Source of the DNA: Arcticibacter sp.
Lineage (GTDB): Bacteria > Bacteroidota > Bacteroidia > Sphingobacteriales > Sphingobacteriaceae
Length of the DNA stretch: 64,000 nucleotides
Assembly (NCBI RefSeq): GCF_045629565.1
Contig: NZ_JAZQRL010000007.1
Span: forward strand, 88 to 64,087
Direction: 5' to 3'
Shown piece by piece: positions 5,904-12,120 of this stretch. A program made the translations under genes and the position numbers. The notes under the pieces are model-generated. The model worked only from the letters and a program-made list of their open reading frames with translations. It had not been told where the DNA came from and ran no database searches. Numbering within the stretch: the first letter of the stretch is position 1; each line of letters opens with the position of its first letter.

Positions 5904-7247
5904 TTATACGCCAACGTAGGTGAGTGGACTGATTTTTCTGATTTCATCCTTCACGTCTTCTGAAACGTTGAGGGTAGACACGAAAGCGGATATGGTTGAA
6001 GCGCTCACCTTCTCATTGGTCCGCGTGAGCTCCTTTAATGCCTCGTACGGATTGGGATAGCCCTCTCTCCTTAAAATGGTTTGTATGGCTTCTGCGGCCA
6101 CCGCCCAGTTCTCATTCAGATGTCCTTCAATTACGGTTCTGTTGAGGAGTAACTTTCCAAGCCCCTTTAAGGTCGACTTCACGGCTATCAGCGAGTGTGC
6201 TATCGGTACACCTACGTTTCTTAACACTGTAGAATCGGTCAGGTCTCTTTGTAGGCGGGATACCGGCAGTTTGGCAGCAAGGTGTTCAAAAAGTGCGTTC
6301 GCTATTCCCAGGTTTCCTTCAGAATTTTCAAAGTCAATCGGATTTACCTTATGTGGCATGGCTGATGAACCAACTTCTCCGGCTTTGATTTTCTGGCCGA
6401 AATAGTTCATCATGATATACATCCACATGTCGCGGTCGAGATCCAAAATAATGTTATTGATCCGCTTAAATACGTCGCAATGTGCAGCGAAGTTATCGTA
6501 ATGTTCTATTTGTGTAGTGTACTGTGAGCGATTTAAGTGGAGTTGGTTGTTAACAAAGTTATTCGCGAATTGCTTCCAGTCGATTGAAGGGTAAGCGATG
6601 TGATGTGCATTGAAATTACCCGTCGCGCCACCGAACTTCGCGGAAAATGGGATTACTTTTAACTGCTCGAGTTGAGCCTCCAGACGTTCCACAAAGACGT
6701 AGATCTCTTTACCCAGGCGGGTGGGTGAAGCAGGCTGTCCATGTGTGTGCGCCAGCATCGGGATTTCTGCCCAGTCTGAAGCCAGTCCCTTTAACTTATC
6801 GATCAGCTCGGTAATAGCAGGCAGGTAAGATTCTTCGACAGCAAGCTTTAGCGAATAGGGTATTGCCGTATTGTTGATGTCTTGAGATGTAAGTCCGAAA
6901 TGTATAAATTCCTTATATTCTTGTAAATTCAGACTGTCAAAAACTTCCTTTATGAAATATTCAACCGCCTTAACGTCATGGTTGGTAACACGTTCTATCT
7001 CCTTAACACGTAAAGCATCCTCATCCCTGAAATTAATATAGATAGACCTTAGCGCGTCAAAATGCCCGGCTGGAAAGTTTTCAAGCTGGGGAAGAGGAAT
7101 AGATGCCAGTGCGATGAAGTACTCTATTTCCACATAGACCCTGAACTTGATGAGCGCGGCCTCTGAAAAATATGCTGATAGTTCGCGGGTGGAATTTGCA
7201 TATCGCCCATCAACAGGAGATATGGCATTTAGTGAAGATAGTATCAT
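5904..7247 (-). CDS. purB: adenylosuccinate lyase
   Basis: SPVDGRY, TNHDVKAVEY, GSSAMPHKVNPIDFENSEGN signature; TAACTTTG -7 box at 7262-7269. Confidence 0.95.
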   Translation of the reverse strand: MILSSLNAISPVDGRYANSTRELSAYFSEAALIKFRVYVEIEYFIALASIPLPQLENFPAGHFDALRSIYINFRDEDALRVKEIERVTNHDVKAVEYFIKEVFDSLNLQEYKEFIHFGLTSQDINNTAIPYSLKLAVEESYLPAITELIDKLKGLASDWAEIPMLAHTHGQPASPTRLGKEIYVFVERLEAQLEQLKVIPFSAKFGGATGNFNAHHIAYPSIDWKQFANNFVNNQLHLNRSQYTTQIEHYDNFAAHCDVFKRINNIILDLDRDMWMYIMMNYFGQKIKAGEVGSSAMPHKVNPIDFENSEGNLGIANALFEHLAAKLPVSRLQRDLTDSTVLRNVGVPIAHSLIAVKSTLKGLGKLLLNRTVIEGHLNENWAVAAEAIQTILRREGYPNPYEALKELTRTNEKVSASTISAFVSTLNVSEDVKDEIRKISPLTYVGV

Positions 7248-7323
7248 TTTGTAAATTTTGCCAAAGTTAATGTTTTATGGAAGACAGGGAAAAAGTATTG
7301 TAGATTGTAAGGCAAGACAAAAA

Positions 7324-7354
7324 AAAACCTGTAACTTGATAAGCTACAGGTTTT
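7324..7354 (-). terminator. intrinsic terminator of the small-lipoprotein pair
   Basis: AAAACCTGTA...TACAGGTTTT stem; A-run on + strand gives a U-tract on - strand. Confidence 0.65.
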
Positions 7355-7397
7355 AAAACATGTCCTTCTGTAAGGAACAGAAAGTGTGTTTTGAATA

Positions 7398-7607
7398 TTA
7401 GTTCTGAATTGAATCAACAGCAGCAGAAGAAGCTGAATCGATAGTGTCAGTTTTAGCGTCAGCAGAAGCGTCGATTGAATCGATGCTAGCATCTGCAGTT
7501 GAATCGATTGAATCTGCAGTGTTGTTTTCAGTTTGAGAAGAGTTACAAGCTGATGCAGAAAGAGTAATAGCTAAAGCTAAAAAGCCGAATTTAAATAGAT
7601 TTTTCAT
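7398..7607 (-). CDS. small acidic lipoprotein A (69 aa), D-S/T-rich
   Basis: Signal peptide II MKNLFKFGFLALAITLSASA-C; paralogous to 7705-7899. Confidence 0.8.
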   Translation of the reverse strand: MKNLFKFGFLALAITLSASACNSSQTENNTADSIDSTADASIDSIDASADAKTDTIDSASSAAVDSIQN

Positions 7608-7629
7608 TTTATTTTTTAATAGTTTATTG

Positions 7630-7657
7630 TTAATACCGGTATTTCTAATAGGTAACC
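7630..7657 (-). promoter_or_regulatory. putative ECF-sigma promoter GGTTAC-N14-GGTATTAA
   Basis: Minus strand reads GGTTAC ctattagaaatacc GGTATTAA, 22 nt before lipoprotein A start. Confidence 0.6.
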
Positions 7658-7704
7658 TTGACTTGCGAAAAAAATCAAAAATATTTCTCGCTTTTTCTCA
7701 AAGA

Positions 7705-7899
7705 TTATTGAGCTACAGTTGAATCAACAACTACAGTTGAATCAAGAACAGCAGTAGTGTCAGATAGCATAGTAGTGTCAGTTGTAGCAGAATCTACCAA
7801 AGTAGAGTCAGCACCACTTTCAGTTTTAGTAGAGTTGCAAGCAGATGCTGTTAAAGTGATAGCCAATGCTAAGAAACCGAATTTTACTAGATTTTTCAT
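7705..7899 (-). CDS. small acidic lipoprotein B (64 aa), D-S/T-rich
   Basis: Start reassigned to MKNLVKFGFLALAITLTASA-C (ATG 7899) by alignment with paralog A. Confidence 0.8.
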   Translation of the reverse strand: MKNLVKFGFLALAITLTASACNSTKTESGADSTLVDSATTDTTMLSDTTAVLDSTVVVDSTVAQ

Positions 7900-7936
7900 T
7901 TTAATGTCTTTATGATTTTTTACAAACAATTTACTG

Positions 7937-7964
7937 TTAATACCAGGTCTCCCGAAAAGTAACC
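7937..7964 (-). promoter_or_regulatory. putative ECF-sigma promoter GGTTAC-N14-GGTATTAA
   Basis: Minus strand reads GGTTAC ttttcgggagacct GGTATTAA upstream of lipoprotein B. Confidence 0.6.
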
Positions 7965-8008
7965 CAAATAACTCAATATTTTTTTCTTTCTAATTTTACT
8001 TATCATTG

Positions 8009-8036
8009 GGTTACAAATTTCTTAAAAAGGTATAAA
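8009..8036 (+). promoter_or_regulatory. putative autoregulatory ECF promoter GGTTAC-N14-GGTATAAA
   Basis: Plus strand GGTTAC aaatttcttaaaaa GGTATAAA immediately upstream of the ECF sigma gene. Confidence 0.6.
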
Positions 8037-8047
8037 TAGTGAGTAGA

Positions 8048-8605
8048 ATGATAAAAAGGTCAGAGCCAGCGGATAATGAGGTGATCCTCGGAATTCTGAA
8101 TGGTTCTAAGGGCATACTGGAAGAAATATATAAAGCGTATTTTCCGATGATTTTGCAGCTTGTGGTAATGAATAACGGGAATGACGATGATGCGAAGGAT
8201 GTTTTCCAGGAATCTGTTATCGTTCTTTATGATAAAGTCAAGAAGGGTGATTTTGTGCTGAATAGTAAGCTCAAAACCTTTATCTACTCAGTATGCAGGA
8301 GGCTATGGTTAAAAAGGCTTTCGCAGAAAAGTCGTAATACGGGTAATATTACAGACTTCGAGGATGTGCTTACTGTGGAAGATGACATCGAAAGGCATGA
8401 AGAGAAAGACCGACAGTTTACCATGATGGAAGCAGCTTTAGGACGACTCGGAGAGCCTTGTAAGACGATTATTGAGGATTACTATATAAACAACAGATCT
8501 ATGCAGGAGATCTGTGAGAAATTTGGTTACACAAATGCTGATAATGCAAAGAATCAGAAATACAAATGCCTGCAACGCTTAAAGAAACTATTCTTTCAAG
8601 TATAA
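8048..8605 (+). CDS. ECF-type RNA polymerase sigma factor
   Basis: DAKDVFQE (region 2), LKTFIYSVCRRLW, region-4 SMQEICEKFGYTNADNAKNQKYKC; ATG 8048 preferred over GTG 8039 because of the promoter position. Confidence 0.9.
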   Translation: MIKRSEPADNEVILGILNGSKGILEEIYKAYFPMILQLVVMNNGNDDDAKDVFQESVIVLYDKVKKGDFVLNSKLKTFIYSVCRRLWLKRLSQKSRNTGNITDFEDVLTVEDDIERHEEKDRQFTMMEAALGRLGEPCKTIIEDYYINNRSMQEICEKFGYTNADNAKNQKYKCLQRLKKLFFQV

Positions 8606-8618
8606 AGGAGTTTAGATT

Positions 8619-9716
8619 ATGGATATTACAGAACAAATTGAAGCATATTTACGGAACGAAATGTCGGCTGATGAGGCTGCTGCTTTCGAACGATTAAGAG
8701 CTTCTGATCCCGATCTGGACCAGAAGGTGGTATTGCATGAGCAGTTTATCAAACAGATGAAGGATTACGGAGAGCATCGTAAGCTGATTTCTGACATGAA
8801 TGCCATTCATGCAGGTCTTGATATCGAGTCGATCAGAGAAGAGGTGATCCCGTTCGGACTGAAAGTCAGAACGATGTGGAGAAAATACCGGGTTAATGGT
8901 GCTATAGCTGCATCTGTTGCGCTTATGGCAGTCTTTACTACGTTATTTTCCACGGGCTATTTCAACAAGGCTACTTCCATACGTTCGGATTATAACGCAC
9001 TTCGGAGAGAATGGAGCAGAGATATTAATACAAAGGTTAAGCGCTCTCAGAACGAGATATTGCAAAATATTAATGCCACCACCAAAGAGCCTTCGGCTCC
9101 ATCTCTATTTGGAGGTACAGGCTTTGCGTTGAACACAGAAGGATATGTAGTGACTAATTATCATGTAGTCAAAGGGGCCGACTCTGTTTATATCGAGGAT
9201 AATGATGGAAACTCATTTAAAACAACAACAGTTTATGTTCACCCGTCTTACGATATTGCTGTACTGAAAGTGACTGACGCTTCTTTCAAATTACCAAAAT
9301 CCCTTCCTTATTCGTTTAAGAAATCAGGTGCGGACTTGGGACTGGATGTTTATACGTTGGGCTATCCTAAAGACGACATAACCTACACCCGCGGATACTT
9401 AAGTTCCAAGAGTGGGTATGCAGGGGATACGCTTGCTTACCAAGTTGATATTTCCGTGAATGGAGGAAATAGTGGAGGTCCGCTGCTCGATAGTAAAGGA
9501 AATGTAGTTGGAGTAGTAAATGCAAAACAAGATCGTACTGATGGTGCATCTTTCGCAATTAAGTCTGCTTACCTCCTTGAAGCTATTGATGCTATTCCGA
9601 AAGATTCCTTAGGACGAAAAGTTTCAGTCAATACTAAGAACACGTTAGCGTCGTTAAATAGAAGTGAGCAGATCAAAAAGATAGGCAATTACATTTACAT
9701 GGTTAAGGTTTATTGA
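8619..9716 (+). CDS. anti-sigma-like N-domain + TM + S1/HtrA-like serine protease (no PDZ)
   Basis: N-term EQIEAYLRNEMS..EAAAFE helix; TM GAIAASVALMAVFTTLF; catalytic TNYHVV, YDIAVL, GNSGGP. Confidence 0.8.
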   Translation: MDITEQIEAYLRNEMSADEAAAFERLRASDPDLDQKVVLHEQFIKQMKDYGEHRKLISDMNAIHAGLDIESIREEVIPFGLKVRTMWRKYRVNGAIAASVALMAVFTTLFSTGYFNKATSIRSDYNALRREWSRDINTKVKRSQNEILQNINATTKEPSAPSLFGGTGFALNTEGYVVTNYHVVKGADSVYIEDNDGNSFKTTTVYVHPSYDIAVLKVTDASFKLPKSLPYSFKKSGADLGLDVYTLGYPKDDITYTRGYLSSKSGYAGDTLAYQVDISVNGGNSGGPLLDSKGNVVGVVNAKQDRTDGASFAIKSAYLLEAIDAIPKDSLGRKVSVNTKNTLASLNRSEQIKKIGNYIYMVKVY

Positions 9717-9735
9717 TAAGAGTTAGTTTGAGTGA

Positions 9736-9772
9736 ACAAAGAAGCCGTTTGGATTTCCAAACGGCTTCTTTG
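9736..9772. terminator. bidirectional terminator
   Basis: ACAAAGAAGCCGTTTGG / CCAAACGGCTTCTTTGT perfect stem between convergent genes. Confidence 0.8.
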
Positions 9773-9792
9773 TGTTATAAGGGTTTGTCTTA

Positions 9793-10968
9793 TTATCTGT
9801 CCAGCTCGCCAAGTACAATATCGACGGAGCCTATTATCGCTATCAGGTCTGCGATAAGAATTCCTCTGGAGATCTCAGAAATGACTGATAAGTTGCAAAA
9901 GCTTGGTCCCCGCGCTTTTACACGCCTGGGTATTTCAGACTTTCCATCTGTGATAAAGTAGAAGCCAAGTTCCCCCTTGGGGTTTTCTGCCCTCATGTAG
10001 AAATCCTGAGCCTTAGGAATGATTTTTTTAGGCAGCCTCGCTCTCGGGTCAAATTCCTTTGTACGCTTGAGATCGCTCTGTAGTCGTGCCAAACACTGAC
10101 TGATAATACCCACCGACTGCTCAATCTCATCTATACGAACCTTGAACCGGTCCCAACAGTCTCCCACAGTGCCCATTTCGCCCTTACCCACCGGAATCTC
10201 AAATTCCAGCTCTGGGTATGCTGAATATTCGTCAACTCGTCTTAGGTCCCATTTCAGCCCCGATCCACGCAGCATAGGTCCTGAGCATCCGTAATTGATC
10301 GCCGTGGAGAGTGGCAATACACCTACATTGGCAGTTCTGGATATGAAGATTTCATTTCCGGTTAGCAGTTCATTTAACTCGCCCATCTTTGGTTTAAAAT
10401 AGTCGATAAATTCTTTGCACCTTTCTTCAAAACCAACCGGAAGGTCATAATACAACCCGCCAACCCAGATATAGTTGTATAACATCCTCGATCCTGAAGC
10501 CCATTCAAGCATATTCATGATGTGTTCCCTATCCCTGAAACACCACAGAAAAGGCGTAAAGGCACCGATGTCTATTCCATACGTCCCTAAAGCGATAAGA
10601 TGAGAACCTATCCTGTTCAATTCAGAGACAAGTACGCGTATGTATTCAATCCGCTTCGGGATGTCTCCATCTATACCCAGCATTCTTTCAACCCCCATCA
10701 CCCAGGCATGACTGCTGTTCATGGAAGCCAGATAGTCGAGGCGGTCAACGAAGGGAATAGTCTGCTGATACGTCAGATTCTCCGCATGCTTTTCAAAGCA
10801 TCTGTGAAGATAGCCTACGTGTGGGATTACTTCTTTCACAATCTCCCCGTCAGTGATCAGTTCAAGCCTCAGAACTCCATGGGTGGAGGGGTGTTGGGGA
10901 CCCATGTTCAGAACCATTTCAGTAGGTTCCACTTCTGATATAAGCTTATGATACCGTGTTGATTCCAT
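9793..10968 (-). CDS. nuoD: NADH-quinone oxidoreductase subunit D
   Basis: [43 protein letters not shown]. Confidence 0.93.
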
Positions 10969-11465
10969 TAGTCCACTTTAATTCCGTTATAATATTCCTG
11001 CGCCTTGTAATCCTTCCTTAGGGGGTGACCTTCCCAGTCGTCCGGAAGCAGAATCCTTCTAAGATCAGGATGGTTTTCAAATCTTATTCCGACAAGGTCA
11101 TAGGCCTCACGTTCGTGCCAGTCGGCGGTTTTCCAAACTTCAGATACGGTTGGGAAGGAGGGCAGTTCCTCGCGACTACGGTCATGGTACTTGCGTACTT
11201 TTAATGTCAGGGAACTTTTATAAGGTATGGATGCGAGGTGATAAACGACGCCAAATATATTTTCCTCAACACCATAGTCAACGCCGCTAAGTGAAGCCAG
11301 AAAATCAAACCATGTCTTGTCGTTGTCTCTTAATTCCAGACAGACATCTGCTATTGCTTCTGGCTTAATGACCAGTGCAGGCTGGCGCCCGGTGGTTTCT
11401 TCGCCTACGATCACATCCTGACCAAATTTATCAGTCAGCAGGATTTTTATTTCTTCGAACGTCAT
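10968..11465 (-). CDS. nuoC: NADH-quinone oxidoreductase subunit C
   Basis: [38 protein letters not shown]. Confidence 0.92.
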
Positions 11466-11466
11466 T

Positions 11467-12120
11467 TTAAGGAGCTAATCGTACAATTTTCCAATTATTG
11501 TCTACCAGTTTGTAGGCAATCCGGTCGTGAAGTCTCCCTGATCCGCCCTGCCAGAACTCAATAAAGGTAGGCTTTACGACATAACCTCCCCAATGTGGTG
11601 GCTTCGCAACCTCTGCACCATCTTTGTATTTCTCCTCAAGAAGTGTGAGATTGTTTAAAAGAAACTCTTTATTGTCTATTTCACGGCTCTGAGGTGATGC
11701 AACAGCTCCGATCTGACTTTTCCTTGGGCGTGAATGGAAATAAGCTTCCGAGTCTTTCTCGTTTAATTTTTCGAGGGTTCCTTCGATTCGAACCTGTCGT
11801 TCCAATTCCTGCCAGAAAAAAACCATTGCAGCCTGCGCATTCTTGGTAATCTCCTGACCTTTTCGGCTCAGGTAATTGGTATAAAAAACAAACCCTCGCT
11901 CGTCGAATCCCTTTAACAACATTACCCGCGCTGAGGGTTTGCCGTCAGCGGTTGCTGTAGCCAGTGTCATAACATTCGGCTCATATATCTGCGAAGCCAT
12001 GGCTTCGGCGAACCATTTTGAAAATTGGCTAACCGGATTGGCTTCAACGTCTTTTTCAGATAGGGTAGCACTTTTATAGTCCTGTCGCAGGTTTTGGATG
12101 GTCTCTTTATCTAAGGTCAT
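11467..12120 (-). CDS. pdxH: pyridoxamine 5'-phosphate oxidase
   Basis: LRQDY, PSARVMLLKG, FYTNYLSRKG, IEFWQG..GRLHDR; TAACTTTG -7 box at 12128-12135. Confidence 0.92.
   Translation of the reverse strand: MTLDKETIQNLRQDYKSATLSEKDVEANPVSQFSKWFAEAMASQIYEPNVMTLATATADGKPSARVMLLKGFDERGFVFYTNYLSRKGQEITKNAQAAMVFFWQELERQVRIEGTLEKLNEKDSEAYFHSRPRKSQIGAVASPQSREIDNKEFLLNNLTLLEEKYKDGAEVAKPPHWGGYVVKPTFIEFWQGGSGRLHDRIAYKLVDNNWKIVRLAP

Follow-up and report, generated by a model that had tools for sequence, protein, structure and literature searches.

The 64,000-nucleotide stretch of Arcticibacter sp. DNA analyzed here (hereinafter, the window) contains a compact locus consisting of a gene for a sigma factor of the extracytoplasmic function (ECF) type, a gene for a membrane-anchored serine protease that is likely an anti-sigma factor, two genes for very small lipoproteins (mini-lipoproteins), and three copies of one bipartite promoter motif. 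The lipoprotein genes are arranged in tandem on the minus strand, and the sigma gene diverges from both. These gene identities had been proposed in a sequence-only reading of the window; the open reading frames lie where that reading placed them, and family searches agree with the assignments. The genes and predicted promoters are as follows.

7398 to 7607, minus strand: mini-lipoprotein 1, 69 residues, with a relaxed lipobox (...LSASA-C), "DSIDS" subtype (open reading frame; NF050142, 32.6 bits)
7705 to 7899, minus strand: mini-lipoprotein 2, 64 residues from the ATG at 7899, with lipobox ...LTASA-C, "VDS/VDT" subtype (open reading frame; NF050142, 38.7 bits)
8039 to 8605, plus strand: ECF-type sigma factor, 188 residues from the GTG at 8039 (TIGR02937 and Sigma70_r2 matches; start assigned from codon alternation)
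8619 to 9716, plus strand: putative anti-sigma factor/protease, 365 residues (open reading frame; starts 13 nt past the sigma stop codon)
7630 to 7658, minus strand: predicted promoter of mini-lipoprotein 1, aGGTTAC-N15-GTATTAA, the end of its -10 box 22 nt from the ATG (pattern scan and alignment of four Arcticibacter species)
7937 to 7965, minus strand: predicted promoter of mini-lipoprotein 2, GGGTTAC-N15-GTATTAA, the end of its -10 box 37 nt from the ATG (pattern scan and alignment)
8008 to 8036, plus strand: predicted autoregulatory promoter of the sigma/anti-sigma operon, GGGTTAC-N15-GTATAAA, the end of its -10 box 2 nt from the sigma GTG (pattern scan and alignment; motif present before sigma in 73 orthologous loci)

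The motif had originally been described as GGTTAC-N14-GGTATWAA, present in three copies with an exact spacing of 14 nt. A pattern scan of the window recovered all three, at 7630 to 7657 (minus strand), 7937 to 7964 (minus strand), and 8009 to 8036 (plus strand), compared with 0 matches in each of 100 dinucleotide-preserving shuffles. The refined form, GGGTTAC-N15-GTATTAA, returned the same sites when up to 2 mismatches were allowed and none other in the 64 kb (shuffle mean, 0.32), which agrees with the earlier reading, where no other copy had been seen in the intergenic regions, and the same three sites were also returned by the shorter core GTTAC-N15-GTAT. The motif is real and lies far beyond chance. 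A generic sigma-70 promoter scan performed no better than on shuffles, and an Rfam scan of window positions 7000 to 10000 identified no RNA family. The promoters of sigma and mini-lipoprotein 2 are divergent, with their -35 boxes separated by 42 bp, and the three 14-nt spacers (CTATTAGAAATACC, TTTTCGGGAGACCT, and AAATTTCTTAAAAA) are unrelated. In an intergenic alignment of four Arcticibacter species, GGGTTAC and GTAT(T/A)AA are invariant at all three sites, whereas the 15 nt between them have diverged. The statement that only the two boxes are conserved therefore holds with regard to the spacers, but the G preceding GTAT, which had been included in the motif, is not conserved among Arcticibacter.

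Absence of the motif from orthologous loci had been named as an outcome that would refute the proposal; instead, the motif is abundant there. We collected 80 Sphingobacteriales loci encoding a full-length relative of the 365-residue protein (Pedobacter, Daejeonella, Mucilaginibacter, Olivibacter, Solitalea, and others), and in these 544 kb the core GTTAC-N15-GTAT has 164 matches, where equal base frequencies would predict about 4. Of these matches, 162 directly precede either sigma or a family mini-lipoprotein gene (54 to 80 residues), the latter on the strand opposite to sigma. The refined motif is found before the sigma gene and before 1 to 3 divergent mini-lipoprotein genes, with spacers that vary freely by species. 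When 70 distinct sigma-side promoters and 78 distinct lipoprotein-side promoters were profiled column by column, information came close to its maximum only within GGGTTAC and GTATTAA; a weaker (C/A)(T/A)TT signal is present immediately 3' of the -35 box. The strict motif occurs within 100 nt upstream of 74 of the 92 family lipoprotein genes in the 80 loci, 22 to 51 nt from the ATG (mode, 39), and the sigma-adjacent lipoprotein genes without it have one-base variants (GGTCAC, GCATTAA, GAATTAA, or ATATTAA) or a 16-nt spacer.

An independent scan across genomes was performed with the pattern GGGTTAC-N15-GTATTAA-N(15-45)-ATGAAAAA on one genome per species (185,579 species), for which the estimated number of chance matches is a handful. 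It returned at least 120 stretches, and in nearly all of the matches listed, the downstream gene encodes a D/S/T-rich mini-lipoprotein. The scan also led back to the sigma and protease-anti-sigma pair: a sigma orthologue is found in 97 of the 120 listed stretches, and a full-length relative of the 365-residue protein directly follows sigma in 87. About 23 of the 120 listed matches have no sigma orthologue in the stretch; some of these are distal copies far from any sigma gene, and others are at the edge of a stretch or contig. Hosts among the matches listed belong to the Sphingobacteriales, the Chitinophagales (Ferruginibacter, Puia, Niabella, Flavisolibacter, and Chitinophaga), and the Cytophagales (Adhaeribacter and Hymenobacter), with one Flavobacteriaceae metagenome-assembled genome (MAG) and no Bacteroidales. 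As judged by these comparisons, the motif travels with the putative sigma/anti-sigma pair across a large evolutionary distance. Contigs bearing the module are also labeled Bifidobacterium, Acinetobacter pittii, Janthinobacterium lividum, and Pyrinomonadaceae in MAG records (L121, L127, L137, L138, L151, and protein P0106); given the Bacteroidota-specific module, these are probably mis-binned.

The description of the regulon as compact is borne out only for the 64-kb window, and other genomes have distal promoter copies. In one Pedobacter (L090, 2389 to 3300), the extended promoter GGGTTACCTT...GTATTAA precedes a gene for a 282-residue DUF4349 lipoprotein, and in a Chitinophaga MAG (L149, 7857, minus strand), the same extended promoter precedes a gene for a 409-residue secreted protein with a weak VWA match. 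The regulon may thus include larger proteins in some genomes.

The sigma factor matches TIGR02937 (sigma70-ECF) with 72 bits (cut-off, 42.9) and Pfam Sigma70_r2 with 26.5 bits (cut-off, 24), with a weak Sigma70_r4 match, which places it by sequence in the ECF (group 4) sigma-70 family. The nearest NCBIfam subfamilies, Sig70_bacteroi1 (47.7 versus 126 bits) and sigma_PG0214 (33.7 versus 130 bits), score far under their cut-offs. In the Sphingobacteriales, the first codon that could start sigma is located 1 to 3 nt past GTATTAA in 75 of 77 loci (GTG in 65, TTG in 9, and ATG in 1). Stop codons in frame with sigma are found within the -10 box or just 5' of it, and initiation at the following candidate codon would cost the protein a conserved N-terminal region. 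Because GTG, TTG, and ATG alternate at a fixed place, this is taken as the true start; the ATG at 8048 is restricted to the lineage of the window. The transcription start predicted for sigma falls on its start codon or beside it, a point not noted in the earlier reading, which implies that the autoregulated sigma mRNA would have little or no leader and usually a non-AUG start. In the Chitinophagales, the sigma start codon is located 9 to 16 nt past the box.

The two mini-lipoproteins have nearly identical signal peptides, MKNL(F/V)KFGFLALAITL(S/T)ASAC, and mature parts rich in Asp, Ser, Thr, Ala, and Val. The feature common to all subtypes of the family is the tripeptide D-(S/T)-(A/I/L/M/T/V), the general O-glycosylation sequon of Bacteroidota (PMC8550257, PMC12871550). 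The 48-residue mature part of mini-lipoprotein 1 has 6 such sequons (DSI, DST, DSI, DTI, DSA, and DSI) versus 1.15 in shuffles, and mini-lipoprotein 2 also has 6 (DST, DSA, DTT, DTT, DST, and DST) versus 1.48. In 74 promoter-linked proteins, 402 sequons are found in 3327 mature residues, corresponding to 12.1 per 100 residues, compared with 0.27 in the long open reading frames of the window (45-fold), and to 5.4 per protein, compared with 1.04 in composition-preserving shuffles. Asp is followed by Ser or Thr in 93% of cases in these lipoproteins versus 10% in the background, and 88% of their Asp residues sit in a full sequon. A set of 154 non-redundant members, taken from three orders, has a median of 5 sequons; 90% of these proteins have at least 3, and the typical spacing is 5 to 8 residues. 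O-glycosylation of exported Bacteroidota proteins takes place in the periplasm, and the sites are usually almost completely modified (PMC8550257, PMC12871550, PMC8729774). Both window lipoproteins combine a signal peptide and a lipobox Cys with their sequons, as expected of exported sequon-bearing proteins, and the most economical reading of these sequences is that the mini-lipoproteins would be lipid-anchored carriers of several O-glycans.

No Pfam family matches the mini-lipoproteins. Among NCBIfam models, NF050142 ("PG1828 family lipoprotein"; cut-off, 50 bits) ranks first for the two window proteins as well as for ten diverse relatives. With 32.6 and 38.7 bits, the window proteins fall short of the cut-off, and relatives under the same promoter score 24 to 56 bits, two of them passing (56.2 and 50.3). 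By this measure, the window proteins are either peripheral to NF050142 or its sister group. When mini-lipoprotein 2 served as the query of a protein search, only 10 matches were obtained, and because genes this small are mostly not called, the family was studied from the DNA. The "DSIDS" subtype contains three 11-residue repeats, e.g., DSIDSTAEVTT / DSIDSTAEALT / DTVDSAAEAKT (L017, L008, L009, and similar loci), and members from Solitalea and some Chitinophagales contain 7-residue VDSAAAK repeats. Both window subtypes are kept as separate paralogues in several genera. An identity as entericidin was rejected; that name appears only as the UniRef cluster label of an A. svalbardensis homologue, and no Entericidin match was found in Pfam or NCBIfam at E values up to 0.1.

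The 365-residue protein encoded after sigma is 96% identical to its A. pallidicorallinus counterpart and is organized as follows.

8619 to 8852, plus strand: residues 1 to 78, predicted cytoplasmic N-terminal helical domain (three predicted helices; predicted local distance difference test score, pLDDT, 76 to 86; no cysteine)
8853 to 8951, plus strand: residues 79 to 111, predicted transmembrane helix, hydrophobic AIAASVALMAVFTTLFSTGYF (conserved in the family; predicted helix 79 to 111)
8952 to 9098, plus strand: residues 112 to 160, predicted periplasmic linker (pLDDT below 50 over residues 116 to 163)
9099 to 9608, plus strand: residues 161 to 330, HtrA/DegS-like S1C serine protease domain (Trypsin_2, PDB profiles, and Foldseek)
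9162 to 9164, 9252 to 9254, and 9471 to 9473, plus strand: catalytic His182, Asp212, and Ser285 (invariant in 14 diverse relatives)
9609 to 9716, plus strand: residues 331 to 365 and the stop codon, C-terminal tail (predicted helix 348 to 358 and strand 359 to 364)

The protease domain matches Pfam Trypsin_2 (E value, 5e-25) and the PDB profiles of MucD, DegP, DegS, and AlgW (E values, 1e-23 to 1e-18). Foldseek, run with the AlphaFold model (mean pLDDT, 71), ranks DegS and DegS-deltaPDZ highest (probability, 1.00; template modeling score, up to 0.73). Since the catalytic triad is invariant in the 14 relatives, the domain is probably active. Only 35 residues extend beyond it, and no PDZ match was found in family searches. 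The linker (residues 112 to 160), which is modeled with low confidence, is a candidate site-1 cleavage region. The C-terminal residues K363, V364, and Y365 (KVY-COOH; 9705 to 9713) are invariant in the 14 relatives, and this aromatic end recalls the outer membrane protein C termini that activate DegS; by analogy, it might regulate this PDZ-less protease from within. Asp188 and Ser189 (9180 to 9188) are also invariant, within an ADS(V/I)Y motif that doubles as an O-glycosylation sequon (in the window, DSV) and is no general HtrA motif.

Weak matches of the N-terminal domain to zf-HC2 were obtained for 8 of the 14 relatives (best E value, 0.0012), and because residues 1 to 78 contain no cysteine, it is not a ZAS protein (H-x3-C-x2-C). 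Searches of Pfam and NCBIfam gave no RseA-type match for the 365-residue protein, and no beta-barrel family match was found. A search of residues 1 to 160 against 1.84 billion representative proteins retrieved 166 clusters at 50% identity, whose full-length members almost all have 355 to 385 residues, which ties the N-terminal region to the protease architecture. The open reading frame list of the locus contains no second anti-sigma candidate. From its position, topology, and weak family signal, an anti-sigma role is likely. The gene order, the 13-nt gap, and the motif upstream of sigma in 73 loci are compatible with a cognate anti-sigma gene that is co-transcribed with sigma and with autoregulation. 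The sequence-only reading had not recognized the circuit as one already described, and literature searches bear this out, as they found no description of an anti-sigma factor fused to an HtrA protease and nothing relevant on the motif string. The main text of PMC7826278 names no protease-type anti-sigma factor.

The module is embedded in housekeeping genes, with purB (adenylosuccinate lyase; 5904 to 7247, minus strand) on one side and nuoD, nuoC (NADH dehydrogenase subunits D and C), and pdxH (pyridoxamine-phosphate oxidase; together 9793 to 12120, minus strand) on the other. The same flanking genes are found in other Arcticibacter species. Two further features may delimit the transcripts.

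7324 to 7354, minus strand: intrinsic terminator after mini-lipoprotein gene 1, with a 14-bp stem followed by a T-run (terminator scan and sequence)
9739 to 9770, no strand assigned: hairpin AAGAAGCCGTTTGG-ATTT-CCAAACGGCTTCTT where the anti-sigma and nuoD genes converge (read from the sequence; absent from the terminator-scan list)

The latter is probably a bidirectional terminator. Positions 7658 to 7704, which separate lipoprotein gene 2 from the gene 1 promoter, contain no terminator-like hairpin, so gene 2 transcripts may read through into gene 1.

We consider it likely that the locus is an autoregulated ECF sigma/anti-sigma module with a very small output, and the proposal of the earlier reading that the motif is the cognate, autoregulated ECF promoter, shared with the two mini-lipoprotein genes, is strongly supported by the comparative data. 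In the proposed mechanism, the sigma factor (8039 to 8605) would recognize GGGTTAC-N15-GTATTAA, one copy of which would drive the sigma/anti-sigma operon and two the divergent mini-lipoprotein genes. The anti-sigma factor would be a single-pass inner membrane protein, with the N-terminal helical domain binding sigma and retaining it in the cytoplasm and a DegS/HtrA-type serine protease without PDZ in the periplasm. An envelope signal would probably activate the protease, which would cut the periplasmic linker of its own or a neighboring anti-sigma subunit and thereby start the usual proteolytic cascade that frees sigma. The induced products would be lipid-anchored peptides of 40 to 50 mature residues with 5 to 7 sequons each, and because of these sequon copies, they are most likely densely O-glycosylated and mucin-like; such lipopeptides would alter the glycan content of the periplasm or of membrane surfaces. 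Sequence and comparison establish the motif with its position, orientation, and conservation, the identities of the genes, the intact triad, and the density of sequons; the identity of the sigma factor that reads the motif, its binding by the anti-sigma factor, self-cleavage, actual glycosylation, and the physiological signal are inferred.

The nearest studied analogue of this putative circuit is the EcfO/Das1 (ECF21) - Reo/Dma1 - NigD system of Bacteroides fragilis, B. thetaiotaomicron, and Phocaeicola vulgatus, whose regulon consists of a few NigD lipoproteins (PMC10927553, PMC13114119). Both systems are restricted to Bacteroidota and pair an ECF sigma factor with a single-pass anti-sigma factor (putative, and probably co-transcribed with sigma, in the window), whose short N-terminal cytoplasmic region would sequester sigma; the known regulon of both is very small and made up of phylum-specific lipoproteins with O-glycosylation sites, and both are proposed to report envelope or outer membrane stress. 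However, the Dma1 anti-sigma factor spans the envelope and ends in an outer membrane beta-barrel (OMP_b-brl_2) (PMC10927553), whereas the putative window anti-sigma factor carries a DegS-like protease. The targets are NigD-family proteins in the former and would be PG1828-type sequon arrays of 55 to 80 residues in the latter, and the former occurs in the Bacteroidales, whereas the window-type module occurs in the Sphingobacteriales, Chitinophagales, and Cytophagales. PG1828 itself is known only as a TLR2-activating lipoprotein of Porphyromonas gingivalis (PMC13466725, PMC6706054). It resembles the mini-lipoproteins as a small lipoprotein of about 60 to 70 residues with a mature part rich in Ala, Asp, Ser, and Thr, and the P. 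gulae orthologue carries 4 D-S/T sequons (L205, 2744 to 3050), but the Porphyromonas gene has a housekeeping-type promoter (TTTG...TAtaTTTG) and no GGGTTAC motif. The P. gulae locus was found via a published polymerase chain reaction primer, for which the other two matches (L204 and L206) are due to chance. We rejected the adjacency of PG1827 and PG1828 as an instance of the same module: the P. gulae sigma factor (PG1827/SigH orthologue) has no significant similarity to the window sigma factor, the lipoprotein gene is convergent with it, and no protease-anti-sigma gene is present at the locus.

In the sigma-E/RseA/DegS (and AlgU/MucA/AlgW) envelope stress pathway of Proteobacteria, as proposed here, a single-pass anti-sigma factor holds an ECF sigma factor and an inner membrane-anchored HtrA-family protease acts in the periplasm, and the window protease is nearest to DegS and DegS-deltaPDZ by structure and to MucD, DegP, DegS, and AlgW by sequence. 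DegS, however, is a separate protein with a PDZ sensor, whereas in the window the protease and the putative anti-sigma factor form one polypeptide without PDZ; the window system has neither an RseB-like partner nor an RseA-type family match. The sigma-E promoter is GGAACTT-N16-TCAAA rather than GGGTTAC-N15-GTATTAA, and its large regulon of folding factors differs from the handful of lipopeptides that are the known output here. Promoters of the Bacillus subtilis sigma-W type have the form TGAAAC-N16-CGTA. They share with the window promoters the bipartite structure, a -35 element ending in AC, a -10 element containing GTA, and (predicted for the window) autoregulation, but the window -35 box is GGGTTAC (TAC versus AAC), its -10 box is extended to GTATTAA, and the RNA polymerase of the window's phylum uses atypical housekeeping promoters.

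Several points weigh against an autoregulated module of this kind. The glycosylation of the mini-lipoproteins is predicted from sequence, and the zf-HC2 match of the N-terminal domain is sub-threshold (16.1 bits versus a cut-off of 22.2). The housekeeping-type promoter of the Porphyromonas member indicates that the family is not always under a window-type sigma factor, and some second or third tandem lipoprotein copies, which follow a terminator hairpin, have no motif. The window -35/-10 spacer is 1 to 2 nt shorter than that of the classical sigma-W/sigma-E ECF consensus. In addition, the lipoprotein promoters have conserved A residues 6 to 7 nt past the box, a more usual position for a transcription start; transcription from the corresponding position would exclude the sigma start codon from the transcript in the Sphingobacteriales. 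Either the geometry is unusual, with a leaderless sigma mRNA, or the sigma-side copy would act differently.

This closeness of the sigma-side motif to the start codon, abnormal for a promoter, also favors a different account, in which the motif is functional but is read by another ECF sigma factor or a DNA-binding regulator, and the adjacent sigma gene is a co-regulated target. The link of the window sigma factor to the motif comes from sequence comparison, and Bacteroidota genomes average about 22 ECF sigma factors (PMC7826278). However, the motif and the sigma/anti-sigma pair co-occur over three orders in an unbiased scan (87 of the 120 listed matches), and a non-palindromic motif that always faces the downstream gene, has a rigid 15-nt spacing, and lies 22 to 51 nt before lipoprotein starts has the geometry of a promoter. 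Autoregulation is, moreover, a general rule for ECF sigma factors, and we regard another reader as very unlikely. That the copies are alike merely through local duplication of the tandem lipoprotein genes, without function, might be suggested by the clear paralogy and near-identical signal peptides of these genes, but it is already contradicted by the comparative data and can be given almost no credence: in the window as well as across species, the boxes stay invariant although spacers and flanks have fully diverged; the gene behind the sigma-side copy is an unrelated one; and the same boxes recur in three orders, in over 200 distinct promoters.

The remaining alternatives concern the proteins. 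HtrA proteases are typical of envelope stress regulons (e.g., degP in the sigma-E regulon), and with the anti-sigma domain match below threshold, the 365-residue protein could be an ordinary membrane-anchored quality control protease, co-transcribed with and induced by sigma but with no anti-sigma function. We consider this improbable, as such a protease has no need of the conserved 78-residue cytoplasmic helical domain before the transmembrane helix, the N-terminal region is found only in the protease architecture, and the gene invariably occupies the +1 position after sigma, canonical for an anti-sigma gene, at a locus with no other candidate. A somewhat stronger, although still unlikely, alternative accepts the promoter and takes the D-S/T periodicity as structural, as in amphipathic or coiled-coil helices like the Lpp/OprI "alanine zipper," LEA-type 11-mers, acidic cation-binding peptides, or protease substrates or decoys. 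Some members do have regular repeats (VDSAAAK, five times, in Solitalea; DSIDSTAEVTT, three times, in the Daejeonella type), sequon spacing peaks at 5, 7, and 8 residues, and one member weakly matches the Lpp/OprI alanine-zipper family NF040598 (18 bits versus a cut-off of 43). However, the three-residue sequon, which accounts for most Asp residues, is the sole feature common to subtypes that differ in repeat length and composition, and the reported occupancy of such motifs in exported proteins of Bacteroidota is nearly complete (PMC12871550). Structural and glycan roles are also compatible with each other.

The gene set of this probable autoregulated module is conserved over three Bacteroidota orders and appears to be unstudied. 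Its overall ECF logic is ordinary; the fusion of the putative anti-sigma factor and protease is unusual, and so are the targets, tiny lipoproteins formed almost wholly by sequons. By fusing a DegS-type protease to an anti-sigma factor, the module would naturally unite the first two steps of the sigma-E cascade in a single protein. Because the module and its promoter are shared by Sphingobacteriales, Chitinophagales, and Cytophagales from soil and fresh water, regulon and promoter should be predictable in hundreds of genomes, and the promoter/sigma/anti-sigma set might serve as an orthogonal switch for Bacteroidota engineering. The function of the Bacteroidota O-glycosylation system is an open question (PMC12871550), on which stress-inducible, lipid-anchored glycan carriers would provide a direct handle. 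More tentatively, and with considerable doubt about the combination as a whole, the locus could represent a phylum-specific envelope stress response whose output is essentially only multiply O-glycosylated lipopeptides, whose anti-sigma factor is its own site-1 protease, and whose sigma factor is made from a leaderless, GUG-initiated mRNA. If true, a self-cleaving anti-sigma mechanism would here be joined to an inducible "glycan coat" as a function of the O-glycosylation system of Bacteroidota.

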